DNA of 64,000 bases. Origin: a bacterium (GTDB lineage Bacteria; Bacillota_I; Bacilli_A; RFN20; CAG-826). Below the pieces are notes generated by a model. That model did not search any database. It saw nothing but the letters and a program-made list of their open reading frames with translations, and had not been told where the DNA came from. The stretch spans positions 9,178 to 73,177 of the forward strand of contig CAVDSY010000003.1 of assembly GCA_963611815.1 (NCBI GenBank). Reading direction: 5' to 3'. Positions 4,321-57,939 of the stretch are shown one piece after another (position 1 is the first letter of the stretch; every line of letters starts with the position of its first letter). The position numbers were made by a program, and so were the translations under genes.

Positions 4321-4585
4321 CTGTTAGATATTCTTCGATATAGGCGCTTTTTTACGGTACATATATCTTTGTCCTTTTGGGTTTTCCAACAAAAATATAT
4401 TGAAAAACTGCACTTTTCCAACATCTGTTTTATTAATCGATAAGTGACATGAATAGCTGCAAGGAGTTTATGTTCCGACACGCAAAGACCGCGCTTAGAA
4501 GGTTAGGAAGGCAGCAAAAGAAAATTCAACCACGTCGCTGCCGTTATGATTTACAATTGTCCCCGATTAAGGAGGCCTATGTAAA

Positions 4586-5160: not shown

Positions 5161-6132
5161 TTAGTTGCTTGCGCTTGTGCTTTTCACGACGGAGAGCTCG
5201 GTCAAGTCGCTGTAAAGAGGGTAACTTATATTGATCCCTGAGCTGCCACCGGCGTCATTCATTTGGTCGATGAAAGCATTAATTAGGCCGTTTGTTGTGC
5301 CGCTGTATGTTGTGTTTTTGCCGTCATCGTAATCAATCCATACATAGACGATGCAGGTTTTGTCGCTCGCCGCTGCGTATGTAAGGTCAAAGCTAATGGA
5401 AGCGTTTTTTGTGGTCTCAGTGGCGCCGTTAACGGTCTTCAGCGTTTTCACAAAATACTTTTGCTCTACATTCTTAAACTCATTTTTCAGCGTCTGGAAG
5501 TTGGTCTCAGAGCTGCCGCTATCCCAAGTATAGGTATGTTCGCCTCCCGTTACGGGTTCCACCATTGCCTTCACTGAGATAACGGAGGAAATGTAATTTG
5601 AGAGATCGTATTTTTGCCCAGAAGCGCCAGACGCGTCTTCACTTACTGACTCAGATGAAGAACTGTCGGTTGTCACTGTTTTGATAGCATGATCTTTATC
5701 CGTATTGTGCGTGATCGCTAAAGAAAGCTTGTTATCAGTGGTGGTGTATGTTCCGCCGCTGAGCTTGAGCTTCAATAAAATGGGGGTGTAGTCGTTGTCT
5801 TCTTGGAAGACCTGGTCATAACGCAGCAAAGAAAGATCCATCTTGCCTGTGTCATTGCCATTCGCATCTTTGATTGTTGGGTTTTCTGCGAATTCGTGGC
5901 TTCCGTTATCGTTCTGGATGTATTTGTAGACGGTCATGTCTACTGAGGCATTCTCGTCCGTTTTAACCTGGATCGCCATGCCGCTTGCGTCTACTTCTTT
6001 GTTGGATGCGAACCAAGAGAAAGTGGAGGATGTGCTGAACCAAGCAAACAACGATACCGCAAGCGTGCCCAAAGAAAGGAAATAGGCAACGCTTGCCAAG
6101 CGGAATCCTTTTCTTCTGAAGAGCTTGCTCAT
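5161..6132 (-). CDS. TasA/camelysin-like secreted protein with SipW-cognate-type signal peptide (locus 1)
   Basis: N-terminus K/R-rich, hydrophobic core, then SLFAWFSTSSTFSWFASNKEVDASGMAIQV, which parallels TFAFFSDKEVSNNTFAAGTL of camelysin and TWAAFNDIKSKDATFASGTL of TasA; paralog of 23918-24877. Confidence 0.55.
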   Translation of the reverse strand: MSKLFRRKGFRLASVAYFLSLGTLAVSLFAWFSTSSTFSWFASNKEVDASGMAIQVKTDENASVDMTVYKYIQNDNGSHEFAENPTIKDANGNDTGKMDLSLLRYDQVFQEDNDYTPILLKLKLSGGTYTTTDNKLSLAITHNTDKDHAIKTVTTDSSSSESVSEDASGASGQKYDLSNYISSVISVKAMVEPVTGGEHTYTWDSGSSETNFQTLKNEFKNVEQKYFVKTLKTVNGATETTKNASISFDLTYAAASDKTCIVYVWIDYDDGKNTTYSGTTNGLINAFIDQMNDAGGSSGINISYPLYSDLTELSVVKSTSASN

Positions 6133-6189: not shown

Positions 6190-6330
6190 CCCCTGCTAGA
6201 AACCCTTTCGGGTTGGCAGCTGGCTGTCTTAGGAAGACCCTTTAGCTTTGCGTCGCCAGATTGCCCTGGCTTTGCTTTTGACGAGGGGAATTATAAGGGA
6301 TACGCGCGTACGCGCAAGGGCTAATTCTTT
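6190..6330 (-). promoter_or_regulatory. conserved structured leader (copy 1) plus relic of the giant-gene start codon region, upstream of the TasA-like gene
   Basis: nucleotide similarity to 28797-28900; hairpins GUCUU-CCUA-AAGAC and GCCAGG-GCAA-UCUGGC on the minus-strand RNA. Confidence 0.5.
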
Positions 6331-6656: not shown

Positions 6657-9214
6657 TTAGGCGCTCGAAGTCGTATCTTTAGGGGAATAGTCTTCTTTGC
6701 TGCCGGTGGCCGTTATGCCTGTTCCTGTTATGCTCGTTGTTCCGCCTGCGGTATCAACGTAATAGACCGTTATCGTTTCGTTTTCACCATCAACTGTTCT
6801 AACGCGGTAAAAATAGACTGTGGTAGGGTTGCCACTTATAGCGAAGGTTACTTTTGATGGGGTGTAATCGGATTCGGTGGTTATGTTGCCTTCGCTGTCC
6901 GTTGTTTCTTTCGTAGAGTTGATTGGCTTGATGGTTTTATCTGTAGTGTTGGAATAGTAGACGAAGTCGATGGGAGGAACTTCCTCTTCGCCCGTATCCT
7001 TTTTCCCGTCCGCTCCGTTGGCGCCGATATCGAAATACATGATGTAGGGGCAGTTGGTCGCGGAGGAATCCGCGCCGACGAAGTAATCTCCTGCGCTCAG
7101 AGGGATCTCCATGTAGTAGGCGCACCCATTTTTGAGAACGCCCTCCCCGCTCTTCCCACTGATTGGGTATATGGCGTTCAGGTCGAATATTTTCTCTGCG
7201 CCGTTAGGGATCGTCGCGGAGTCATCTGTGTATTGGTTGTAGTACTTGCCATCAAATTTGTAGATGGCGCTGATTTTCTTCGCGCTCTCGATTTGCTTCT
7301 TGTCCGTGGAACGGATAATTTCGTAAACGGAAGGCATGGCGTGCCCAGACGAGCTCGAGGCTGAGGTGTAAGTTCCGAGGATCATCTTCAGCGAGCCGGA
7401 ACTCGATAGTTCGAAGTTGAAGCCGGCTTTATACATCTCGTAGCCTGAATCGTAAGTGACACCGTTTATCTGTATATCACTGTAAGTCCCTTTTTCCAGG
7501 GCTCCGTAATTTTTAATGTCGTTAGAGCCGATTTTGTAGAGTTGGATTCCATCCAAACTGATTATGCCGCTGGCTAAGGTGTCGGGCTTGTTCTCACTCG
7601 AAATCATCTTCGCGAAATTGTGTTTAACCTTGTAGTAGCCATTCTCAATGTCACCGAAGCCGCAATCCGCGATGTCTTTGCTGTTTGAGGTCGTGCTCGT
7701 CGACCATGATTTGCCGCTGTTTTCCGTATCCGAGATGCGATAGGTGGCGTTTTCTAGATTGGTCGCCAGAGTGTCAATGTAGAAAAAAGAGAGGCTGTCG
7801 TATCCGAAAACTGGGTAAATTCCGGTGGCGTCTTTTGTCCTATCCGCTTCGGATATGGATGTAGCGCCTTTGTCTGATACGTATATCGAATAACGAATTC
7901 CGTTTTTTTAGTTTCGCTTGAACTATTCAAGTTCATCCCTTTGTTATAGAGACGCGGCGTTGCGTTGGATGATGAGATGGTGCCGTCGCCGCCTCTGCCG
8001 ACGAGATAGCCCGTATTGCTGTCTGAGACAGGCTCACCCGTATTGCTGCCTTTTGTGTAGTAGGTTCCGATGTCTTCAGTATCTATGTAAGAACTGGAGA
8101 TCGTCGCTTTATCCAAATCGATATTGAGTGGGAGGCAGGTTCCATTTTGCAAATTGACGCTTTGCCCGAGGTCCTTTGTTGTATCCCAGGTGAAAGGTGT
8201 GCTGTAGTAGTAAATGTTCGCCTTGAACCGCTCGGTCATATCGTATGCCTTCGTGGCTGATCCAGCCGTCATCCCTTTTGCCGCGGCTATGTAGGTGATT
8301 CGCTTGGCGAGGCTCGCGATGTCGATTGATCCGCCCCAGCTGCCGCTGGTGTCGCTGCCCGATCCTCCCGGCTTCCCTTTGTAGTCGAAGTGGTTTGAAT
8401 TATAAGCCCCGATCAAAGAGTGTTGGCTGAGCTTGTCGTTGTCAGCAAGTGCTCCACTGTTAATCACTGAAACATTCGCGTTTTGAAAATCGAAATAGCC
8501 TGATCTGACGCCACAATTGGTCAATTGGCCATTCGCATAGCCGGCGATTAGCCCGACGAGCGTTTGATCGGTATTGGTCTCGACGGTTAGATAGTCAAAG
8601 TAGAGGTCTTTTACTTCGTTTACTTCAACGGTGTAGCCTGTGACCTCGGCGTCGCTTTCGTATTCGCCGACGATGCCGAAGAAACCAACGATGGAGATGC
8701 TGCCTTTGACGTTGCTGTCAGCCCCGGAAGGCCAGCCGGTCTTTTTTAGATTGTCTTCGTTATTGCTGATCGTGAGGTTGCTTATTTTATAGCCCGCCCC
8801 ATTGAAGTTCCCTATGAAGGGGTATTTCGTGGTTCCTGCAGGAGGCAAATAATAACCGTCCGCGTCGATGTCGTTATTCAGTACGAAGTAGACCTGTTCG
8901 TAATCGCTGGTTTCGTTCCCGGAGGCGTCTTTTTTCTTTTTGTTGAAATACCCTGGGTCTTGCAGCCAGTTGAAATAGTAGAGCTGTTTTGGCGTTTCTA
9001 TTTGATATGCGGTTTCCGCGGTTTTCCCATCGCCTCCAGCGAAGTAGCTTCCGACGGCCGCTCCATCCACCCCATCCACTTTCTGAGTGGTCGTAGGTCT
9101 GATGAACCACGCGAGCGATGATACGCCCAAAGTGCAGCCGATGACGACGAAAGAGATCCCGAGGATCAGAATCGGTTTGTTGACGTTGCTGCGGCTTTTT
9201 TTCTCTTTCATGGG
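6657..9214 (-). pseudogene. giant GLUG-motif / beta-helix secreted protein (locus 1), reading frame broken by 1-nt shift at A7 tract (7903-7909); possibly phase-variable rather than dead
   Basis: ORFs 7754-9292 and 6657-7607 are N- and C-terminal parts of a paralog of the 1310-aa protein at 24882-28796. The frame of the second ORF stays open upstream to the A7 run, where the first frame leaves it. Start is MKEKKSRSNVNK at 9214. Confidence 0.55.
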
Positions 9215-9448: not shown

Positions 9449-10357
9449 ATGCTTTACACCAAGATAAGAATGGATTTCAAATACGCGGATAAGGGCCGCT
9501 TCTACCGCGTCTTGCTCATAAAAGGAAATCAGGATTTGCTAACTTTAGGAGTGGCTTTGGGCGATGCGGTATCCGCCGAATTCGAGCATTGCTTCCTCAT
9601 CACGACTGGGAGGAAAGGCCCTTCTTACGTCATGGCCCCTTTCATGGAGGATCCCTTGCCTGGTTATTGCGCTTTAGCAAGGCATACGCTTGATGAGCTG
9701 CCTGAACACTTCGATTATGAATACGATACCGGGGATGGCTGGGACTTCGCCTGCAAACGCTACAAGAAAAAGGTGGAACTCGACTCAAAGCAAGACGTTA
9801 TCCTGCTTGAAGGAGCTGGCCAAGGCGTGTGGGAAGATAACATCGGCACCCTCTATGATTATTTCGCCGGTAGGATAAGCAAGGATTCCGGCGAAGAGGA
9901 TCCCGATAACGGCATTGCCAAACCATGGAATTTCTCCATCGACACCTATGACGAATTCGATTCGCCTTTGGACATCGACTCGCTCAACGACGACCTCGCT
10001 TCGAAGTTCCCCGCGGACTGCCGCCTCATCAAGAAGCAAGAGAACGACTACATCAAGAAGAACGAAATCAACATGGACGATTACACCCATGATGATGCAT
10101 CTGGCGATGTGCAGATCTTCCCTGAAAGCCTCTATTTGGACATCGAAGAGCAGATCTCTACCAAAAAACGCGCGGAGAAGGTCTTCGACGAGCTATCCGC
10201 CCTTTATAGCGGCGGCAAGGCCAGGAACATCATGGCCGCGGTCTATTACAAAACCGTGATAATCGCCTACATTACAAAGAAGATAGATATCGATGAGGAA
10301 AGCTATTTGACCGAGCTTGAAGAGCTGACGGCCAAGCTTAAAGAAGAGAAGAAATAA
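9449..10357 (+). CDS. pRiA4b ORF-3-like family protein (PF07929-like, YEYDTGDGWDF motif)
   Basis: 302 aa; conserved Y.YDxGDGW.F block and acidic C-terminal half. Confidence 0.5.
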   Translation: MLYTKIRMDFKYADKGRFYRVLLIKGNQDLLTLGVALGDAVSAEFEHCFLITTGRKGPSYVMAPFMEDPLPGYCALARHTLDELPEHFDYEYDTGDGWDFACKRYKKKVELDSKQDVILLEGAGQGVWEDNIGTLYDYFAGRISKDSGEEDPDNGIAKPWNFSIDTYDEFDSPLDIDSLNDDLASKFPADCRLIKKQENDYIKKNEINMDDYTHDDASGDVQIFPESLYLDIEEQISTKKRAEKVFDELSALYSGGKARNIMAAVYYKTVIIAYITKKIDIDEESYLTELEELTAKLKEEKK

Positions 10358-16050: not shown

Positions 16051-17052
16051 TTAGTCTAGGCCGAGCTTCGAAAGGAGGGCGATCATCTCCTCTTCGTTTA
16101 AAAGGGTTGCGTTAGCGGAGGTGTAGGCCTCTTTCTCTTCCATCTTCCTCTCGCCTTCGGTGAAGTATTTCTCGTAATTGAGGGAGCGCTTGTCTGGGCG
16201 GATGAGGAAGAAGTCGCCTTTATCTACCGCGCGCAGCATCTCCTCTTGGGTGATGAGGGTCTCGAAGAGCTTCTCCCCGTGCCTTGTCCCGATGCATTCC
16301 GGTTCGATGGAGCAGCCTTTCATCTTAAGAAGGGCGTCTGCCAAGGTCTTGATGGTCGCGGAAGGGGCTTTCTTGACGAAGAGATCGCCTTGCTCGCCAT
16401 GCTCAAAAGCGTAGAGGACGAGCTCTACCGCCTCCTCTAGGCTCATCATGAAACGCGTCATGTTCGGATTGGTTATCGTCAATGGCTTATTGGCTTTTAT
16501 CTGCTCTAGAAACAAAGGGATGACCGACCCTCTGCTGCCCATGACGTTGCCGTAGCGGGTGAGGCAAAATACCGTGTCGCCTTCGCCTGATTGCCTGCTC
16601 CTGGCGACGACGTTCTTCTCCATCAGGGCCTTGCTCATGCCCATCGCGTTGACGGGATAGGCCGCTTTGTCGGTGGAGAGGAAGACGGCTTTCTTCACGC
16701 GGTGCGACAAACAGGCGGAGATGACGTTGTCGCTGCCGATGACGTTCGTCTTCACCGCCTCCATGGGGAAGAACTCGCAGCTTGGGACCTGCTTCAAGGC
16801 CGCGGCGTGGAAGAGGTAATCGACATTGGCGAAAGCCCCTTCGATGGCCCGGTAGTCCCTGACGTCGCCGATATAGAACTTCAGCTTGCCGCTGGAGTAC
16901 TCCTTCCTCATGTCGTCCTGCTTCTTCTCGTCCCTGGAGAGGATGCGGATCTCCCTGATGGGGGTGTTTATGAGGCGGTCGACCATCGCGTGGCCGAAGC
17001 TGCCGGTGCCTCCGGTGATGAGAAGGGTCTTGCCGTCCAATAAATTGCCCAT
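16051..17052 (-). CDS. UDP-N-acetylglucosamine 4,6-dehydratase (PseB/CapD/FlaA1-like, polysaccharide biosynthesis protein)
   Basis: TGGTGSFG Rossmann motif; SRDEKKQ; AAALKQVP; YGNVMGSRGSVIP, typical of inverting 4,6-dehydratases. Confidence 0.7.
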   Translation of the reverse strand: MGNLLDGKTLLITGGTGSFGHAMVDRLINTPIREIRILSRDEKKQDDMRKEYSSGKLKFYIGDVRDYRAIEGAFANVDYLFHAAALKQVPSCEFFPMEAVKTNVIGSDNVISACLSHRVKKAVFLSTDKAAYPVNAMGMSKALMEKNVVARSRQSGEGDTVFCLTRYGNVMGSRGSVIPLFLEQIKANKPLTITNPNMTRFMMSLEEAVELVLYAFEHGEQGDLFVKKAPSATIKTLADALLKMKGCSIEPECIGTRHGEKLFETLITQEEMLRAVDKGDFFLIRPDKRSLNYEKYFTEGERKMEEKEAYTSANATLLNEEEMIALLSKLGLD

Positions 17053-17352: not shown

Positions 17353-17413
17353 TCCCCATTTTCGCCTTAACACCCCAAATTCGGGGAAAACCCTGAAAAT
17401 GGGGTGTTAAGCT
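17353..17413. promoter_or_regulatory. nested and overlapping inverted repeats (two mutually exclusive 10-11 bp stems sharing a GGGG tract), attenuator- or riboswitch-like
   Basis: ccccattttc(17355-64)/gaaaatgggg(17396-405); cttaacacccc(17367-77)/ggggtgttaag(17402-12), followed by cttttctg. Confidence 0.35.
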
Positions 17414-17484
17414 TTTCTGCCAAGGAACCTTTTCGCATCGCTTTTTTACGACAAACGCTTTCCGACGGCGACCCACTTAAAATG

Positions 17485-17533
17485 GTGTTTGTATGGTTCC
17501 CGTGCCGGGGGAGTAGATTCTCTATACGAACAC
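17485..17533. repeat. ~48-nt hairpin repeat, copy 1 (GTGTTTGTATGG-loop-CTATACGAACAC)
   Basis: near-identical to copy at 18482-18530; 12-bp stem with conserved 23-nt loop. Confidence 0.7.
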
Positions 17534-17788
17534 TTTCGCCCACTTTATCGCCCGCCTCGTGGATGAAACTTCACGGGATAGCCAGCAAGATTCCGCCCTC
17601 TTCGAACGTGCATGCTTTCTCGAAATATTTCAAATTGACAACGGGGGGCACCCCGATCGATTTTCTCGCTTATGTAAAGCTGAAGAAATATCTCCGAGGG
17701 CTTTTATTGGTTCTCGCCGAATGTCCTTCGAAGAAGCTGCCTTTCGTTTGAAGGGGCGCCAGGGGTGAGAAAAAGGACTCTTCCTATT

Positions 17789-18058
17789 TTATCTTTCATA
17801 ATGCGACCACATGGCGTGGATCACTACGGCATGCTCCTGAACGTGCACTCTGTAGACAAGGCGGTGCTGGATATTGATTCTGCGAGAGTAATACCCATTC
17901 AAATCGCCGAGCAGCTTTTCATAGGAGGGTGGGGTCTGGAATGGGTTTTCAGAAAGAAGGGCCAAAAGGGATTTCGCCTTTTTCTCGAGTCCGGCCGCCT
18001 TCAGCTTCCCTTTATCATTTTCGGCGTTTTTGGTGAAGAGCACTGTCCACATCACCAT
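17789..18058 (-). CDS. yoeB: YoeB/Txe family type II toxin
   Basis: GYYSRRINIQHRLVYRV and C-terminal HAMWSHYE; 7-nt overlap with upstream antitoxin gene. Confidence 0.75.
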   Translation of the reverse strand: MVMWTVLFTKNAENDKGKLKAAGLEKKAKSLLALLSENPFQTPPSYEKLLGDLNGYYSRRINIQHRLVYRVHVQEHAVVIHAMWSHYER

Positions 18059-18303
18059 TCCTCGTCCGGATCGAACTTCGACATCTCCGACGTTTTCTCT
18101 TTCTCACCTTCTTTGATCTTCGAGACCAAATTGGGCTGAGACATGAGATAAACCGTTTCCAAAAGCGCCTCATAATCCGCTTCACTCAAAAGGATCGCGT
18201 TGCCGTTTTTCGTCGTGACCTGGACGGGCTCGTTAAAGCGGATGACGGAGTCGATCGTATTGAACAAAGTCTTCCTTAGTTCTGTAATGTTTGTCGTGGA
18301 CAT
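18052..18303 (-). CDS. yefM: YefM/Phd family antitoxin
   Basis: MSTTNITELRKTLFNTIDSV...LLSEADYEALLETVYL; ORF track start 18351 is likely an extension. Confidence 0.7.
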   Translation of the reverse strand: MSTTNITELRKTLFNTIDSVIRFNEPVQVTTKNGNAILLSEADYEALLETVYLMSQPNLVSKIKEGEKEKTSEMSKFDPDEEW

Positions 18304-18481
18304 TGTTTTCTCCTCCGGGGTTATTATGGATGGGGATATGTACACAAACAAGTACGTTTTTTACCTAACGAACGTTTTCAGTATGAATCAAAGTCGAGGA
18401 ATCAAGCTGGTCTCCATGGCTTCTTGCTGCTTTTTCTCGAGCAGGAAGCAGCGACCTGACGCGTTGACAAAAAGCAATGAG

Positions 18482-18530
18482 GGGTTTGTATGGCTCCCGT
18501 GCCGGCTGAGTAGCTTCTCTATACGAACAC
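18482..18530. repeat. ~48-nt hairpin repeat, copy 2; on the minus strand it is followed by a U-rich run (terminator-like) and on the plus strand it is preceded by TTGACA
   Basis: GGGTTTGTATGGCTCCCGTGCCGGCTGAGTAGCTTCTCTATACGAACAC. Confidence 0.7.
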
Positions 18531-18651
18531 CTTTAGTGGTGCCGTTTGCGTTCCCAATTGTTGATTTTGCCTTAATGGCACCGTTGTTTATTCCGTCTTT
18601 GCAGGCGTAGGCTTGTTCGGAAAACGTCTCGAAAAATGCGCCTTTTGGCGT

Positions 18652-19986
18652 CTAGTCTTTTAAGCAGGCAAGCGGGATTTCGTAGACCCCGTCCTCTCTT
18701 CTCAAAGCGACCATCCCCATGGTGACGATCATAAGAAACGCCGGCTTGCCCGTTTTCTCCTCGTCGATGTCGCCAGAAAGGGCGAGAAGCTTTTCCGCGG
18801 CTTCGTCGATGTCTTCCCGGTCGCCCATCTTGACTTCGACGAGGGCGTAGCTTCCATCTGAATATTCAATCACCGCGTCTGCTTCGCGATCCGCTTTGTC
18901 GCGGTAGTGGTAGAGCCTCGCCCCAATGGAATCGCAATAGATGCGAAGGTCCCTGACGCAAAGCGATTCGAAGAGAAACCCGAAAGTCCTCATGTCCTTG
19001 AATAAGCTCTTTGGGGTGACGCCCAAGGCGCTTGAAGCGATGGAGGGGTCAACGAAATGGCGGGTCGGCTTGCTGCGAATCGCGATTTTGCTCCGCAGAT
19101 TCGGGTTCCAAGCCTCGAGCTCCTCCGTGACATAGAGCCTTTGGAGGGCGAGGAGATATTTGCCCAAAGTCCTTTCGTTGAAGGAACCCTCGCTTGCGGC
19201 TACGTCTGCTAGAAAGGTGGAATCTGGGCATTCCGAGGAGACGTTTCTCGCGTAGGAGCGCAGCAGCTTCTTTGCCCTCGCCACGTCTTTTCTCAGGGCG
19301 ACGTCCTTCAAAGAGAAAATGTCCTCGTTCACGGTGGCATCGTAGAAATCCTTGGCTTGCTGCAAAGCGACATCCTCTTCTTGTCCGATGGCCATCGGCC
19401 AGCCCCCGCGGCAGATGAAGAAGGCGTAATCCATGATTGTCTTAGAGCAAAAGCAAGGCTTGAATTCGCCTTCGGAAAGGCTCTTCAAAGAGACCCCTCC
19501 ATCGCTGTCGAGGCTCTCGAAAAGAGACATCGGCCTCATCATCTTTCTTACAATCCGCCCTGTTCCGGTGTGACGTTCCCCTCTTTTGACTTTCTCTTTT
19601 TCGCTGACGCTGCCCGTGAGGATAAACTGACCGAAGGAGCGGCTTTTGTCTACTTGGTCCTTGATGGAATTCCAGATGAAAGAGATTTCCTGCCATTCGT
19701 CAATCATCAAAGGTTTCTCCCCCTGCTGAAGGAACAAAGTGGGGGAGGCTTTCGCGAAAGCAACGTATTGTGACTTGGTTTCCTCGATTGTGAGATCGAT
19801 GATGGTTTTGGCTTGTCTAGCGGATGTCGTCGATTTGCCGCACCATTTCGGCCCGACGACAAGAACGGCGCCTTTCGAACGAAGTGCGAACTCCAAAGTT
19901 TTGTCAAACAATCGAGGGATATAGGTTTCTTTCATTGAAACTCCTCCAAGGCGATAATAGCCTATTTGCCGAAAGAAATCATCCAA
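18652..19986 (-). CDS. AAA+ ATPase (AAA_14/DUF4143 family)
   Basis: Walker A GPKWCGKST; C-terminus ...GVYEIPLACLKD shared with the remnant at 23557-23715. Confidence 0.65.
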   Translation of the reverse strand: MDDFFRQIGYYRLGGVSMKETYIPRLFDKTLEFALRSKGAVLVVGPKWCGKSTTSARQAKTIIDLTIEETKSQYVAFAKASPTLFLQQGEKPLMIDEWQEISFIWNSIKDQVDKSRSFGQFILTGSVSEKEKVKRGERHTGTGRIVRKMMRPMSLFESLDSDGGVSLKSLSEGEFKPCFCSKTIMDYAFFICRGGWPMAIGQEEDVALQQAKDFYDATVNEDIFSLKDVALRKDVARAKKLLRSYARNVSSECPDSTFLADVAASEGSFNERTLGKYLLALQRLYVTEELEAWNPNLRSKIAIRSKPTRHFVDPSIASSALGVTPKSLFKDMRTFGFLFESLCVRDLRIYCDSIGARLYHYRDKADREADAVIEYSDGSYALVEVKMGDREDIDEAAEKLLALSGDIDEEKTGKPAFLMIVTMGMVALRREDGVYEIPLACLKD

Positions 19987-20115
19987 AATACAACCTTTGG
20001 CTTCCTTTCAATACAGGGTTTGGCTTCTTTCCGATACCAAATTTGGCTCTTCTTTTGTGCTGACGACTTTGCTTGAAGCCAGTGCGGTGAAAACATTTTG
20101 ACGAAGATCGACGTG

Positions 20116-20172
20116 GTGTTCGTATGGCTCCCGCGCTGTGGCGGTGGGGTGGATCTCATTTATAGTGTTACC
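20116..20172. repeat. partial/diverged copy 3 of the hairpin repeat (GTGTTCGTATGGCTCCCG...)
   Basis: first 18 nt match copies 1/2; lies between the ATPase gene start and the FGGY kinase gene. Confidence 0.5.
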
Positions 20173-28796: not shown

Positions 28797-28900
28797 CAGC
28801 CGCCTTGTTGGCAACCGGCTGTCTCCAAGAGACCCATGGCTTTGCGTCGCTAGGTCGCCCTAGCTTTGCTTTTGTCGGGTTGATGATACGCGAAATGTGT
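28797..28900 (-). promoter_or_regulatory. conserved structured 5' leader of the giant gene (copy 2): hairpins GUCUC-UUG-GAGAC and GCUAGG-GCGA-CCUAGC (GNRA loop)
   Basis: aligns with 6190-6330 with compensatory base changes in both stems. Confidence 0.55.
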
Positions 28901-28989: not shown

Positions 28990-29086
28990 TTGATTTTCAT
29001 TTAGAAAATGCAACTAAACCGCTTGATTTTCATTTAGAAAATGCAACTAAAACTTTGATTTTTCATTTAGAAAATGCAATATTCAA
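28990..29086. repeat. three tandem direct repeats (period 33 bp) each containing the palindrome ATTTTC-ATTTA-GAAAAT; putative operator array in the divergent promoter region
   Basis: TTGATTTTCATTTAGAAAATGCAACTAAA at 28990 and 29023 (identical) and a 1-nt variant at 29055. Confidence 0.8.
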
Positions 29087-29115
29087 TTTGCTTTTTAATG
29101 ATTGATGGAGGTTTT

Positions 29116-30456
29116 ATGGAGTTTAAAAGGAAGGTATATAGCCAAATGAAGGAGTGGAAAGATGAAAGAAACAAGAATTCCGCTCTTTTGATTGAAGGAG
29201 CTAGGCGCGTGGGAAAAACGACGATCGTCAAGGAGTTTGCCAAAAACGAATACGACGGTTTCATTTATATAGATTTCACTTATGCTCCCGACGAAGTCAA
29301 AAGCCTTTTTAAGAAGATAAACCCGGCCAATCGGCTTTCCATGGACCAGTTCTTCTCAGATTTGTTTCTGCTTTTTGGAAAAACGCTGAAGAAAGGAGAT
29401 TTGATCATTTTCGATGAGGTTCAGCATTTCCCATTGGCAAGGCAAGCGATAAAGGCGCTCGTCTCCGATGCCAGATACGACTACATAGAGACAGGCTCTT
29501 TGATTTCCATCCGTGAGAATACGCAGGACATCCAAATCCCTTCCGAAGAAAGAAGGATCGAGATGCACCCCATGGATTTTGAGGAATTCTGCTGGGCTTT
29601 TGGCTGGAACGAGAAATGTGAGATGCTCCGCGCGATATGGGATCAGCGCAAGACGATCAGCGAAAGCGCCCACAGGCTTTTGATGGATGATTTCAGACTC
29701 TACTTGGCTTTGGGGGGGATGCCGAAAGTCGTCTCTTTGTATCAAGAGACCCACTCATTCATGCGCTGCGAGAAGGAAAAGCAGGACATATTGAAGCTAT
29801 ATGAGGACGATCTGAGAAAGCACGACAACAAATCGAGGACGCGGACATTGGATATCTATGATTCCATGCTTCCTTCACTCAAAACCTGGTCGAGGAGAGT
29901 GAAGACGAACAATCGGAGTTCCAGCATGGCCCTATCCTATCAAAGGTCGCTCAAAGATCTTGAGGACTCCAAAATAGTGAACGCGGTCTACCGCTGCCAA
30001 GATTTGAGTTTCGGCACTTTCATGAAGGAAGAGAACGATTTCAAACTTTATCCCCTCGATGTCGGGCTTATGCTCAGCTCTTTGATTGGCGATGCGAACG
30101 ACGATTGCGAGAAGACGTATCTCAAAATAAGGACTGGAAAGCTGGATGGGGCCAATTTCGGAGTTCTGTACGAATCGCTGGTTGCCCAAAGCTTGGCATG
30201 CAACGAAAGGAAGGTCTTCTATCACACCTTCGAGTACGGCGAGAAAAGATATGAGATCGACTTCGCCACCTTCATAAAAGGAAAGATGAATGTGATTGAG
30301 GTCAAATCGACGAAGCGTTTCACGACTTCTTCTTTGTCTTCTTTGAAAGCTAAATACCCGCAGCTGAAGTTCGATAAGTTAGTCGTCTCGCCCAAAACCC
30401 TCAGCTATGACGCCGAGACGACTTACCTTCCTATTTATATGACTTTCCTGCTCTAA
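29116..30456 (+). CDS. AAA+ ATPase (AAA_14/DUF4143 family)
   Basis: Walker A LIEGARRVGKTTIV; Walker B LIIFDEVQ; RBS gatggagg; intact paralog of the remnant at 3842-4320. Confidence 0.65.
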   Translation: MEFKRKVYSQMKEWKDERNKNSALLIEGARRVGKTTIVKEFAKNEYDGFIYIDFTYAPDEVKSLFKKINPANRLSMDQFFSDLFLLFGKTLKKGDLIIFDEVQHFPLARQAIKALVSDARYDYIETGSLISIRENTQDIQIPSEERRIEMHPMDFEEFCWAFGWNEKCEMLRAIWDQRKTISESAHRLLMDDFRLYLALGGMPKVVSLYQETHSFMRCEKEKQDILKLYEDDLRKHDNKSRTRTLDIYDSMLPSLKTWSRRVKTNNRSSSMALSYQRSLKDLEDSKIVNAVYRCQDLSFGTFMKEENDFKLYPLDVGLMLSSLIGDANDDCEKTYLKIRTGKLDGANFGVLYESLVAQSLACNERKVFYHTFEYGEKRYEIDFATFIKGKMNVIEVKSTKRFTTSSLSSLKAKYPQLKFDKLVVSPKTLSYDAETTYLPIYMTFLL

Positions 30457-49289: not shown

Positions 49290-49424
49290 AGTCTTTTCCT
49301 CCTATTCAATATAAGTAAGACTTGTCTTTAGGAGGTAATGACGTCGGGAGCTTTGGTGCAAACAAGGAAGAAAAACGCAAAAGGAGAGCAGTTCTTTCGG
49401 CGATGTTTTCTTCTTTGTTTCCTT

Positions 49425-49502
49425 TCTTAGCTCGTAGTGCCTGACTTCATGGATCAAGCGTAGAGACTGCCGGACCATATCCCCGACATATACGACCTAT
49501 CG
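49425..49502 (-). promoter_or_regulatory. purine riboswitch (guanine type, C at the specificity position) in the 5' UTR of the purine permease gene; expression platform sequesters the SD
   Basis: Minus-strand RNA has P1 (AGGUCGUA), J1/2 (UAU), P2 (GUCGGG / UCCGGC) with L2 (GAUAUGG), J2/3 (AGUCUCUAC), P3 (GCUUGA / UCAGGC) with L3 (UCCAUGAAG), J3/1 (AC), and P1 3' strand (UACGAGCU). Anti-SD CCUCCU (49330-35) can pair with SD AGGAGG (49300-05). Confidence 0.55.
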
Positions 49503-49635
49503 ACGTTAAGTAACTATATATAAAGAAAACGGTTTGCAAACATGAAAGCGGTTTAACGCTAAATTATCTTCCTAGCCCCTTTTTTGCCTTTCTCCCTATG
49601 TTACAATAATCGGCTAGAAAGAAGGTACCCAATCC

Positions 49636-57811: not shown

Positions 57812-57902
57812 TCTAGAGTAGAGAAGTCGCGTTAAGTGCCTGAGGATGGGAGGTCGCCTCTGGACGAAGGAGCAATCCGCGGTGCCTTCTCGCTGCCGCT
57901 AT
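57812..57902 (+). promoter_or_regulatory. THF (tetrahydrofolate) riboswitch upstream of an ECF transporter S-component gene
   Basis: AGAGUAG...CGCGUUAAGUG...AUGGGAGGUCG...ACGAAGGAG...CGCGGUG...GCUGCCGCU matches the conserved blocks of the Eubacterium siraeum THF aptamer almost position for position. Confidence 0.6.
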
Positions 57903-57939
57903 AAAAAGCTTACCTCCCTGCCGTGGAAGGAATTTTGGC

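Follow-up and report, generated by a model that had tools for sequence, protein, structure and literature searches.

The repeat-bearing islet and its genes

The DNA analyzed here, called the window, is a stretch of 64,000 nucleotides from a bacterium of the lineage CAG-826 (Bacillota_I, Bacilli_A, RFN20), taken from assembly GCA_963611815.1 (contig CAVDSY010000003.1, positions 9,178 to 73,177 of the forward strand). Between a gene for a PseB-like dehydratase (16051-17052, minus strand) and an FGGY kinase-AraD gene pair (from 20336, plus strand), it contains a 2.7-kb islet that holds all three copies (c1 to c3) of a short imperfect palindrome found in the 64 kb. Read along the minus strand, the islet consists of a half copy of the palindrome (c3), an ATPase gene, a full copy (c2), a toxin-antitoxin (TA) gene pair, a non-coding remnant and a second full copy (c1). 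An earlier inspection of the sequence alone (the original prediction) had placed a minus-strand ATPase and a yefM-yoeB pair between such repeats, and Pfam searches confirmed these genes. The ATPase (ATPase-A; 18652..19935, minus strand) contains AAA_14 and DUF4143 domains (PF13173, 4.9e-12; PF13635, 5.4e-29) and matches the PADLOC family PDC-S01 (1.8e-58). This family of ATPases fused to a PD-(D/E)XK domain is very common in prokaryotes and is regarded as a candidate defence family that is not experimentally validated. The antitoxin gene yefM (18052..18303, minus strand; PF02604, E=1.3e-12) is followed by the toxin gene yoeB (17789..18058, minus strand; PF06769, E=3.7e-10), and YefM homologues with 80-94% identity were found in metagenome-assembled genomes (MAGs) of Bacilli. 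The palindrome is more than a chance repeat: it represents a family of repeats, new and rare, at the junctions of small modules with defence or TA genes.

The full copies c1 (17484..17536, core palindrome 17485-17533) and c2 (18481..18533), both on the plus strand, score 86.5 and 88.2 bits with the covariance model described below and were recovered by the repeat search as a 53-nt pair of 89% identity, in agreement with the value of about 90% given originally. Copy c2 is where the ATPase and TA modules meet. Of the third copy, predicted as a diverged repeat at 20116-20172, only the left half exists (20115..20138, plus strand, GGTGTTCGTATGGCTCCCGCGCTG, 20.5 bits). Alignment of the consensus with the DNA to its right, up to 20172, does not exceed the level of shuffled sequences, and at the central GCYG the half copy passes into unrelated DNA (from 20139 to 20172 and further). 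All three copies contain the 19-mer GTTYGTATGGNTCCCGNGC, which starts at 17487, 18484 and 20118, always on the plus strand, and has no further match in the window; 0.21 matches are expected from shuffled sequences, and three were reached in 0 of 100 shuffles.

To the left of c2 lies a tail of about 35 nt (18447..18480, plus strand) with the motif GTTGAC followed by an A-rich stretch. On the minus strand this tail is located between the palindrome and the yefM promoter, and alignments also detect it at the related loci L006, L023 (both copies, a and b), L040, L043 and L044. A corresponding tail at c3 (20080..20114, plus strand) was identified by alignment; it belongs to the ATPase-A module and lies inside the block shared with L023 (see below). 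Copy c1 lacks the tail on its left side, and its right flank (to ~17553) is the conserved end of a sequence of about 215 nt (17537..17752, minus strand) that separates c1 from the boundary of the yoeB module. This non-coding segment has no Pfam hit, only the 20-nt end beside c1 matches other loci, and it looks like a remnant of a further module, here called module X.

The array also occurs in the MAG GCA_963610675.1 (NCBI) and in one Logan contig, and the NCBI MAG GCA_963628075.1 matches up to its contig end, just past the ATPase stop codon. Since independent assemblies reproduce the arrangement, it is not an assembly artefact. The near-identical strains L021, L022 and L047 have the same array or a contig break inside it, and no variation of the array was seen among them. 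Three independent assemblies break in or beside the islet, namely L006 at its end (7861), L021 at its start (window position 17870) and L047 at its start (about window position 18635), which is consistent with fragmentation induced by the repeats or by strain variation.

Anatomy of the repeat

The repeat is a 49-bp imperfect palindrome with a single continuous stem of 10-12 bp. In c1, the hairpin search recovered the 12-bp stem of the original prediction (GTGTTTGTATGG/CTATACGAACAC) with a loop of 25 nt, in which 10 Watson-Crick and two G.T pairs are formed on the plus strand. The outer 8-10 nt constitute inverted arms (GTTCGTATGG / CTATACGAAC) that are 25 nt apart in every copy, and the distance from GTT to AAC is exactly 45 nt, without a single indel, in all seven distinct full copies known from the window and related loci. 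Across these seven copies the central GCYGG is invariant, and GCYGGGGGAG is the best-conserved part of the site. The tail (GTTGAC and A-run) is present on one side and faces the downstream module in gene orientation. Within each array the copies are direct repeats, and at all loci the cargo genes without exception share their orientation.

Two independent half copies end at the same central GCYG, 2-5 nt off the dyad centre, with unrelated DNA beyond: c3 retains the left half to ...CGCGC(TG), and the half copy at L043 retains the right half from GCTGGGGGAG.

Several other readings of parts of the site were considered and dropped. A rolling-circle nick site in the loop was rejected because the TACT motif is not conserved. 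A tRNA-derived arm, suggested by GAGTTCGTAT in comparison with the T-arm GAGTTCGAAT, was discarded, as no T-stem is present and ARAGORN predicted no tRNA in the window, L006, L023, L040 or L043. A plus-strand promoter formed by TTGACA of the tail and TATGGY would have a spacer of 19 nt, and the promoter scan found none there.

Relocation of the modules between genomes

A relative of ATPase-A with 95% amino acid identity (P0001) is encoded in GCA_963643485.1 (L023) directly downstream of rpoB-rpoC, where it is flanked on both sides by full copies of the repeat (7825-7872 and 9451-9501). Nucleotide homology between the window and L023 is confined to 18483-20136, that is, from the first base of c2 through the gene, three 23-nt direct repeats upstream of it and the tail to the middle of c3. 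Because this homology begins at c2 and ends in mid-c3, the ATPase module and its bounding repeats must have moved together between unrelated chromosomal sites. An ATPase homologue with 83% identity at L024 occurs without the repeat; therefore, the repeat is not simply part of the ATPase gene. The 23-nt repeats (AATACAnnnnTTGGCTTCyTTyC; 19987..20055 in the window, plus strand), in contrast, travel with the gene and are also found upstream of both homologues (L023, 7930-8001; L024, 871-938). They are located between the repeat tail and the ATPase-A start codon and have an iteron- or operator-like look.

The TA module shows an analogous distribution. YefM relatives with 88-94% identity (L040, L043, L044/L045) have the repeat and the tail of about 35 nt upstream of yefM but differ in their neighbours. 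At L040, where the copy upstream of yefM is degenerate, the TA pair follows a DUF4143 ATPase that shares only 22% identity with ATPase-A and itself has a degenerate copy with tail upstream, so that the order repeat-ATPase-repeat-TA matches the window. Between this degenerate copy and the start of the divergent DUF4143 ATPase, two tandem 62-nt repeats of 84% identity are present (L040, 3853-3976), in a position analogous to that of the 23-nt repeats of ATPase-A. At L043, the TA pair follows a fragment of a winged helix-turn-helix gene, which is preceded by a half copy, and there is no ATPase within 2.1 kb. At L044, it follows an AAA_14 pseudogene fragment.

On one side, the homology of the TA modules ends inside or at the end of c2 (for L043 at 18528, within c2); on the other side, it ends 20-35 nt beyond the yoeB stop codon (at 17770 for L040 and at 17753 for L043). 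Since the TA homology stops this close to yoeB, c1 is not part of the TA module. Instead, c1 and its right flank recur at L043 (91-141) as a junction of the end of module X and the repeat. The picture of one repeat behind every cassette has to be modified: in all five contexts, yefM-yoeB is accompanied by the upstream copy (c2) and the 35-nt tail as its conserved partner, and c1 belongs to the remnant of module X. In summary, the same module with its repeats was found at non-homologous loci both for ATPase-A (window and L023) and for the TA pair (window, L040, L043 and L044). This agrees with the cassette-array reading of the original prediction, including its own test of a boundary association in other strains, as the repeats edge identical types of module whose chromosomal surroundings differ. 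Outside the modules, the flanks of the loci are not similar to each other, and no common target site was recognized. Relatives of the FGGY kinase (76% identity) were considered as a source of an empty site but were uninformative, because their synteny differs (GH43 upstream).

Distribution of the repeat family

A covariance model was built from six copies and run on 196 kb, comprising the window and the related loci, where it detected no repeat beyond the known full and partial copies. A later search with the same model added a full copy at L044/L045. The 64 kb thus contain only three copies, which share one islet, and none was detected in the remaining intergenic regions or elsewhere in about 130 kb of related loci. 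Within the DNA searched, the repeat is therefore not dispersed; dispersal over many unrelated intergenic sites had been named in the original prediction as a possible refutation.

In the species-representative genomes, one scan with the 19-mer matched nine loci, only one of which is genuine (L006). This copy is 94% identical to c1 and is located after an unrelated membrane-protein gene, 76 nt from the contig end; the other matches are due to chance, for example one inside an 854-aa open reading frame (ORF) at L003. One 19-mer scan of metagenome contigs of the Joint Genome Institute (JGI) gave 11 loci, none of them real, and several were coding DNA for a Leu-Tyr-Gly-Ser-Arg-Ala stretch. Two scans of viral contigs, one with the 19-mer and one with a gapped pattern of arms and centre, returned nothing, and blastn of a copy with its tail against plasmid and phage collections yielded no match. 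The repeat family is rare and restricted to a lineage, since these scans of genomes, metagenomes, viruses, plasmids and phages contributed one extra genuine copy. The names of homologous proteins point to uncultured 'Bacilli bacterium' MAGs.

Parallel arrays in a sister species

In another species of Bacilli, whose YefM is 87% identical, the TA pair is located directly after tRNA-Ile and tRNA-Ser and is bounded by a different, 21-nt terminator-like hairpin consisting of a stem and a T-run (ACACGGAGAAATCCGTGTTTT). Hairpins and modules of this species lie at 5894-5939 and 6558-6582 of L030, at 4387-4439, 5894-5944 and 6558-6595 of L039, and at 6776-11429 of L036. One strain has an extra 1.46-kb DUF4143 ATPase module at the tRNA end, flanked by direct repeats of about 40 bp (CCGCCA ... 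hairpin), and another (L036) has a 4.65-kb insertion that encodes an ATPase, Dcm and a MutH-like protein. Since the same types of cargo can be inserted with a different boundary repeat, these arrays support the general picture of module shuffling, and they show that each lineage has a boundary sequence of its own. Downstream of the TA module of L030, three tandem 40-nt units contain the palindrome TTTTTGACTTCGAAGTCAAAAA (6731-6850), and the 4.65-kb insertion of L036 replaces 46 bp within the array of these units.

RNA folding and terminator analysis

According to the original prediction, each full copy is followed on the minus strand by a U-rich run and might double as a terminator. The runs are present, with TTTT 2 nt past c1 and TTTTT 9 nt past c2, but they are detached from the stem. 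The hairpin is absent from the minimum-energy fold of the minus-strand RNA, which is the transcribed strand of the genes (z-scores of -0.2 and -0.07), and it is formed by the plus-strand RNA (-21 kcal/mol), where it uses two G.U pairs. A scan for terminators and promoters detected nothing at the repeat copies, and the locus has no Rfam match either at the gathering threshold or at E<=5. The GC-rich stem, short loop and directly attached U-tract of an intrinsic terminator were thus not found; the loop comprises 25 nt and no stem forms in the minus-strand fold. The idea of minus-strand terminators is not supported by these results.

Likewise, the comparison of copies yielded no positive evidence for selection on pairing, as opposed to selection on the sequence of the two inverted arms. 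Across the 10 core pairs of six full copies, pairing amounts to 93%, a value that column shuffles equal. None of these pairs is altered on both sides in any of the six sequences, although such a lack of compensatory changes is weak negative evidence at this low diversity. Substitutions in the first copy of L023 favour the opposite strand, and the better-folding strand varies between copies. Folded as single-stranded DNA, the copies form weak hairpins (-4 to -9 kcal/mol), and in five of six of them the plus strand of the window is modestly favoured.

Comparison with known systems

To our knowledge, the stockpiling of single-gene cassettes is well understood only for integrons, and the functionally closest analogue of the array would be an integron cassette array without a nearby integrase, known as a cluster of attC sites lacking integron integrase (CALIN). 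As in such arrays, direct imperfect-palindrome repeats separate co-oriented, mostly single-gene modules that include self-promoted TA and defence genes, the modules recur in different arrays from genome to genome, a hybrid site is present at one array end, and, as in CALINs, the recombinase is not adjacent. The site itself, however, is different. In attC sites, RYYYAAC forms the R'' box on the 5' side and GTTRRRY the R' box on the 3' side (Cury et al., 2016; PMC4889954), whereas the repeat reads GTGTT(C/T)G in the 5' arm and CGAACAC in the 3' arm on both strands. The core triplets are thus reversed, with GTT in the 5' and AAC in the 3' arm on either strand, which confirms that there is no match to attC cores, as had been stated originally. 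Furthermore, the stem is continuous and has no R/L boxes, unpaired spacer or extrahelical bases, and the 25-nt interior is of fixed length and conserved sequence (GCYGGGGGAG) in seven copies, in contrast to the variable terminal structure of attC. The apparent break is located at the dyad centre and not at one end, an extra 35-nt tail is present, and no IntI was found in the 64 kb or the related loci. The host also belongs to a Bacilli lineage, and complete integrons were absent from all Firmicutes in a genome survey (Cury et al., 2016; PMC4889954).

Among the other candidate systems, the pdif modules of Acinetobacter plasmids resemble the array in that short sites bound small, often TA-bearing modules in different contexts and depend on a recombinase acting in trans. 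In these modules, XerC/XerD sites of 28 bp (11-6-11) surround TA or resistance genes in alternating orientation and are served by the chromosomal recombinase. In contrast, the arms of the repeat are 25 bp apart instead of being separated by a 6-bp centre, all copies are direct and not alternating, and by eye the arms match the XerD arm at 6 of 11 positions. A further parallel is provided by the cis-mobilizable elements (CIMEs) of Firmicutes, which arise by tandem accretion and are non-autonomous modules bounded by att-type repeats and stacked at one site, where the integrase of a related element can mobilize them in trans. In the sister species, the arrays behind tRNA-Ser (L030 to L039) fit this type closely. 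The repeat of the window differs, as it includes no tRNA or conserved gene end, the modules are small (0.8-1.7 kb), and the sites are full palindromes and not attL/attR hybrids.

With regard to architecture, the repeat is similar to attP sites of large serine recombinases such as Bxb1 (GGTTTGTCTGG...GGTACAAACC), which share a length of about 48-50 bp, inverted outer motifs of 8-11 bp, a non-symmetric interior and a central crossover. The match to the general layout of these sites (40-50 bp, outer inverted motifs, central crossover) is an architectural one only. The outer arm GGTTTGTATGG equals the Bxb1 attP arm, whose sequence was confirmed as published, at 10 of 11 positions; this short match, limited to the arms, is a lead and may be due to chance. 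No resolvase or recombinase domain is encoded nearby, full sites are arranged in tandem instead of the hybrid-only sites expected in a chromosome, and as a central dinucleotide, the invariant GC where the half copies break would be palindromic and directionless. A plain phage-type att site is disfavoured because the chromosomal arrays contain full sites, while attP x attB recombination leaves only attL/attR hybrids. Finally, repetitive extragenic palindromic (REP) sequences, their REPIN doublets and the associated RAYT transposases also involve short intergenic imperfect palindromes that are conserved within a lineage, but the repeat described here has a very low copy number in the DNA searched, is tied exclusively to variable modules, moves together with them and forms no doublets. 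Although it would work like a cassette recombination site, the repeat does not belong to the attC or dif families and most probably not to the REP family either.

A candidate recombination site and alternative explanations

We tentatively propose, with a probability of roughly 45%, that a cassette array of non-integron type uses the repeat as its junction or as its site for site-specific recombination, and that an unlinked recombinase serves it. This interpretation is based on the location of the copies at module joints only, their co-mobility with the modules, their direct orientation, the fixed geometry with two inverted arms, the conserved centre and the hybrid copies that break at this centre. 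The islet would then be a small mosaic array of mobile accessory modules, each of them a self-promoted gene unit such as ATPase-A or yefM-yoeB; in the relatives, a further DUF4143 ATPase and additional fragments would belong here. Viewed in the direction of its genes, a module would start in the central part of a palindrome, continue through its proximal arm, the 35-nt tail and its own promoter to the gene or genes, and end with the distal arm of the next palindrome. The recombinase would bind the inverted arms of 10-12 bp, held a fixed distance apart, and would exchange strands close to the dyad centre, at the invariant GCYGGGGG. As the copies are all arranged as direct repeats, recombination of two neighbours would release a module as a circle with one site, and this circle could be re-inserted either at a further copy or at a secondary site. 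Since the enzyme is not encoded in any of the arrays, it would have to act in trans. The data show the repeats themselves, their restriction to module boundaries, the movement of modules and repeats between genomes, the fixed geometry and the shared break point of the half copies; a dedicated site-specific recombinase, of whatever type and acting on either duplex DNA or a folded single strand, is inferred.

Several observations weigh against this proposal. The absence of an integrase stated in the original prediction was confirmed: the ORFs of the islet and almost every non-nested ORF of 150 aa or more in the 64 kb were scanned, and they matched no Pfam family of recombinases or transposases, only ordinary chromosomal functions. 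Nor did a tyrosine recombinase turn up in the window or at the related loci, and no recombinase gene lies beside any copy there. Neither an empty site nor an excised circle was seen in the loci compared, and presence/absence differences were met only in the sister species with its different repeat. The arm spacing of 25 bp fits no well-studied tyrosine-recombinase core, and full sites at internal and distal junctions with a half site at one end only are not predicted by simple attP x attB integration. The two copies of L040 are more scrambled, and their break points are not shared with the half copies c3 and L043. The family is also rare, with about six independent genomes known to carry it and a single genuine locus among the nine found in the species-representative genomes. 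Moreover, repeats of 50-90 nt with 85-94% identity could mediate exchange by homologous recombination without a dedicated enzyme.

This last point leads to the view that palindrome and tail are a passive, conserved 5' leader or insulator, and that modules are swapped by RecA-dependent recombination or transformation via 50-90 nt of homology. Such a scenario would account for the missing recombinase and for the fact that tail and proximal arm always travel with the promoter region of the downstream module, and homology blocks ending at repeats are also expected from homologous exchange. However, it leaves unexplained how modules arrived at loci without prior homology (after rpoC; between pseB and araB), why the 45-nt geometry is strict and the centre conserved, and why two half copies are broken at the same GCYG and joined to unrelated DNA; furthermore, c1, the second copy of L023 and the copy of L006 have no module on the tail side. 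We therefore regard passive homology as doubtful. Cargo-driven homing or transposition, in which the DUF4143 protein would recognize the palindrome, perhaps as a cruciform, and cut it, so that repair copies adjacent modules into the cut, seems improbable. An ATPase or a fragment of one is present in four of five cargo-holding arrays (window, L023, L040 and L044/L045, but not L043), the family unites an ATPase with a PD-(D/E)XK nuclease domain, and the presence/absence variants of the sister species are ATPase-only modules. Yet the repeat-adjacent ATPases are mutually only 22% identical, both the 83% homologue at L024 and a second ATPase of the window (29074-30456) lack the repeat, L043 has repeats and a TA pair in the absence of an ATPase within 2.1 kb, and the very common PDC-S01 proteins are annotated as candidate defence and not as mobility genes. 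The second ATPase gene of the window also has AAA_14 and DUF4143 domains and belongs to PDC-S01, and no repeat copy is present on either side of it.

Slightly less probable still is a selfish palindrome of the REP/REPIN type or resembling a miniature inverted-repeat transposable element (MITE), which would spread by itself, for instance by a RAYT-type enzyme, and pile up in a permissive, gene-poor accessory region. A short, imperfect, sequence-conserved palindrome in intergenic DNA without coding capacity would be typical of such elements, but the confinement of the three copies in the window to one 2.7-kb islet, the joint movement of copies and flanking modules, and the lack of target-site duplications and inverted doublets argue against it. 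Terminators or RNA-level elements that separate the modules are very unlikely. Their location between co-oriented transcription units, the minus-strand T-runs a few nucleotides past some copies and the canonical stem and T-run of the bounding repeat in the sister species would be compatible with this function, but the folding results, the 25-nt loop, the detached T-runs, the empty terminator scan, the lack of compensatory stem changes and of Rfam matches, and the varying better-folding strand all contradict it. Hardly any probability remains for true attC sites, that is, a CALIN left behind by an integron. An array of co-oriented, promoter-bearing cassettes including a TA pair, an imperfect palindrome with a 25-nt loop that resembles a variable-size one, and the slightly better folding of the would-be 'bottom' strand as single-stranded DNA in five of six copies are reminiscent of such sites. 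They are outweighed by the wrong order of the triplets, the missing R/L box pair with its unpaired spacer and extrahelical bases, the conserved instead of variable loop, the break at the centre and not at the R' box, the lack of IntI in the window and the related loci, and the lack of complete integrons in Firmicutes (Cury et al., 2016; PMC4889954).

A more far-reaching version of the proposed recombination site would be a hitherto undescribed cassette-capture system of gut Bacilli, in which the 49-bp palindrome and its tail are the site for a dedicated enzyme, either an unlinked recombinase or the AAA+/PD-(D/E)XK proteins (DUF4143, PDC-S01), the most frequent cargo, that assembles TA and anti-phage genes into small defence arrays at varied sites. 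We consider this version rather unlikely. If true, a second site family, unrelated in sequence and found in uncultured gut Bacilli, would imply that cassette arrays evolved more than once, and it would explain the movement of TA pairs and of the very common candidate defence genes for PDC-S01 ATPases from locus to locus when no mobile element is visible; the 49-bp site could then also attract interest as a tool for recombination. Should the repeats provide only portable homology, the finding amounts to a small note on mosaic defence islets.

Additional features of the window

A perfect 12-bp inverted repeat with an inner 7-bp stem (CTTAACACCCCA ... TGGGGTGTTAAG) is located at 17366-17411, in the upstream region of the pseB-like gene and 75 nt to the left of c1. 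Its predicted RNA has a free energy of -30.8 kcal/mol (z -5), and it was otherwise seen only in the same strain (L022). It is similar to the junction repeat in architecture, with a 12-bp stem and an inner stem-loop, but unrelated in sequence, and its 3' arm GTTAAGC fits the attC R' consensus GTTRRRY. Riboswitches are present at several positions of the window. Two cyclic di-GMP-I (c-di-GMP-I) riboswitches are encoded on the minus strand (6212-6286 and 28807-28880), and the genes below them contain stretches with 76-78% identity that are 18.7 kb apart (5972-6089/24717-24834; 5313-5362/24055-24104); both are paralogous, c-di-GMP-controlled surface-protein loci. A purine riboswitch was found at 49415-49515 and a tetrahydrofolate (THF) riboswitch at 57812-57903.

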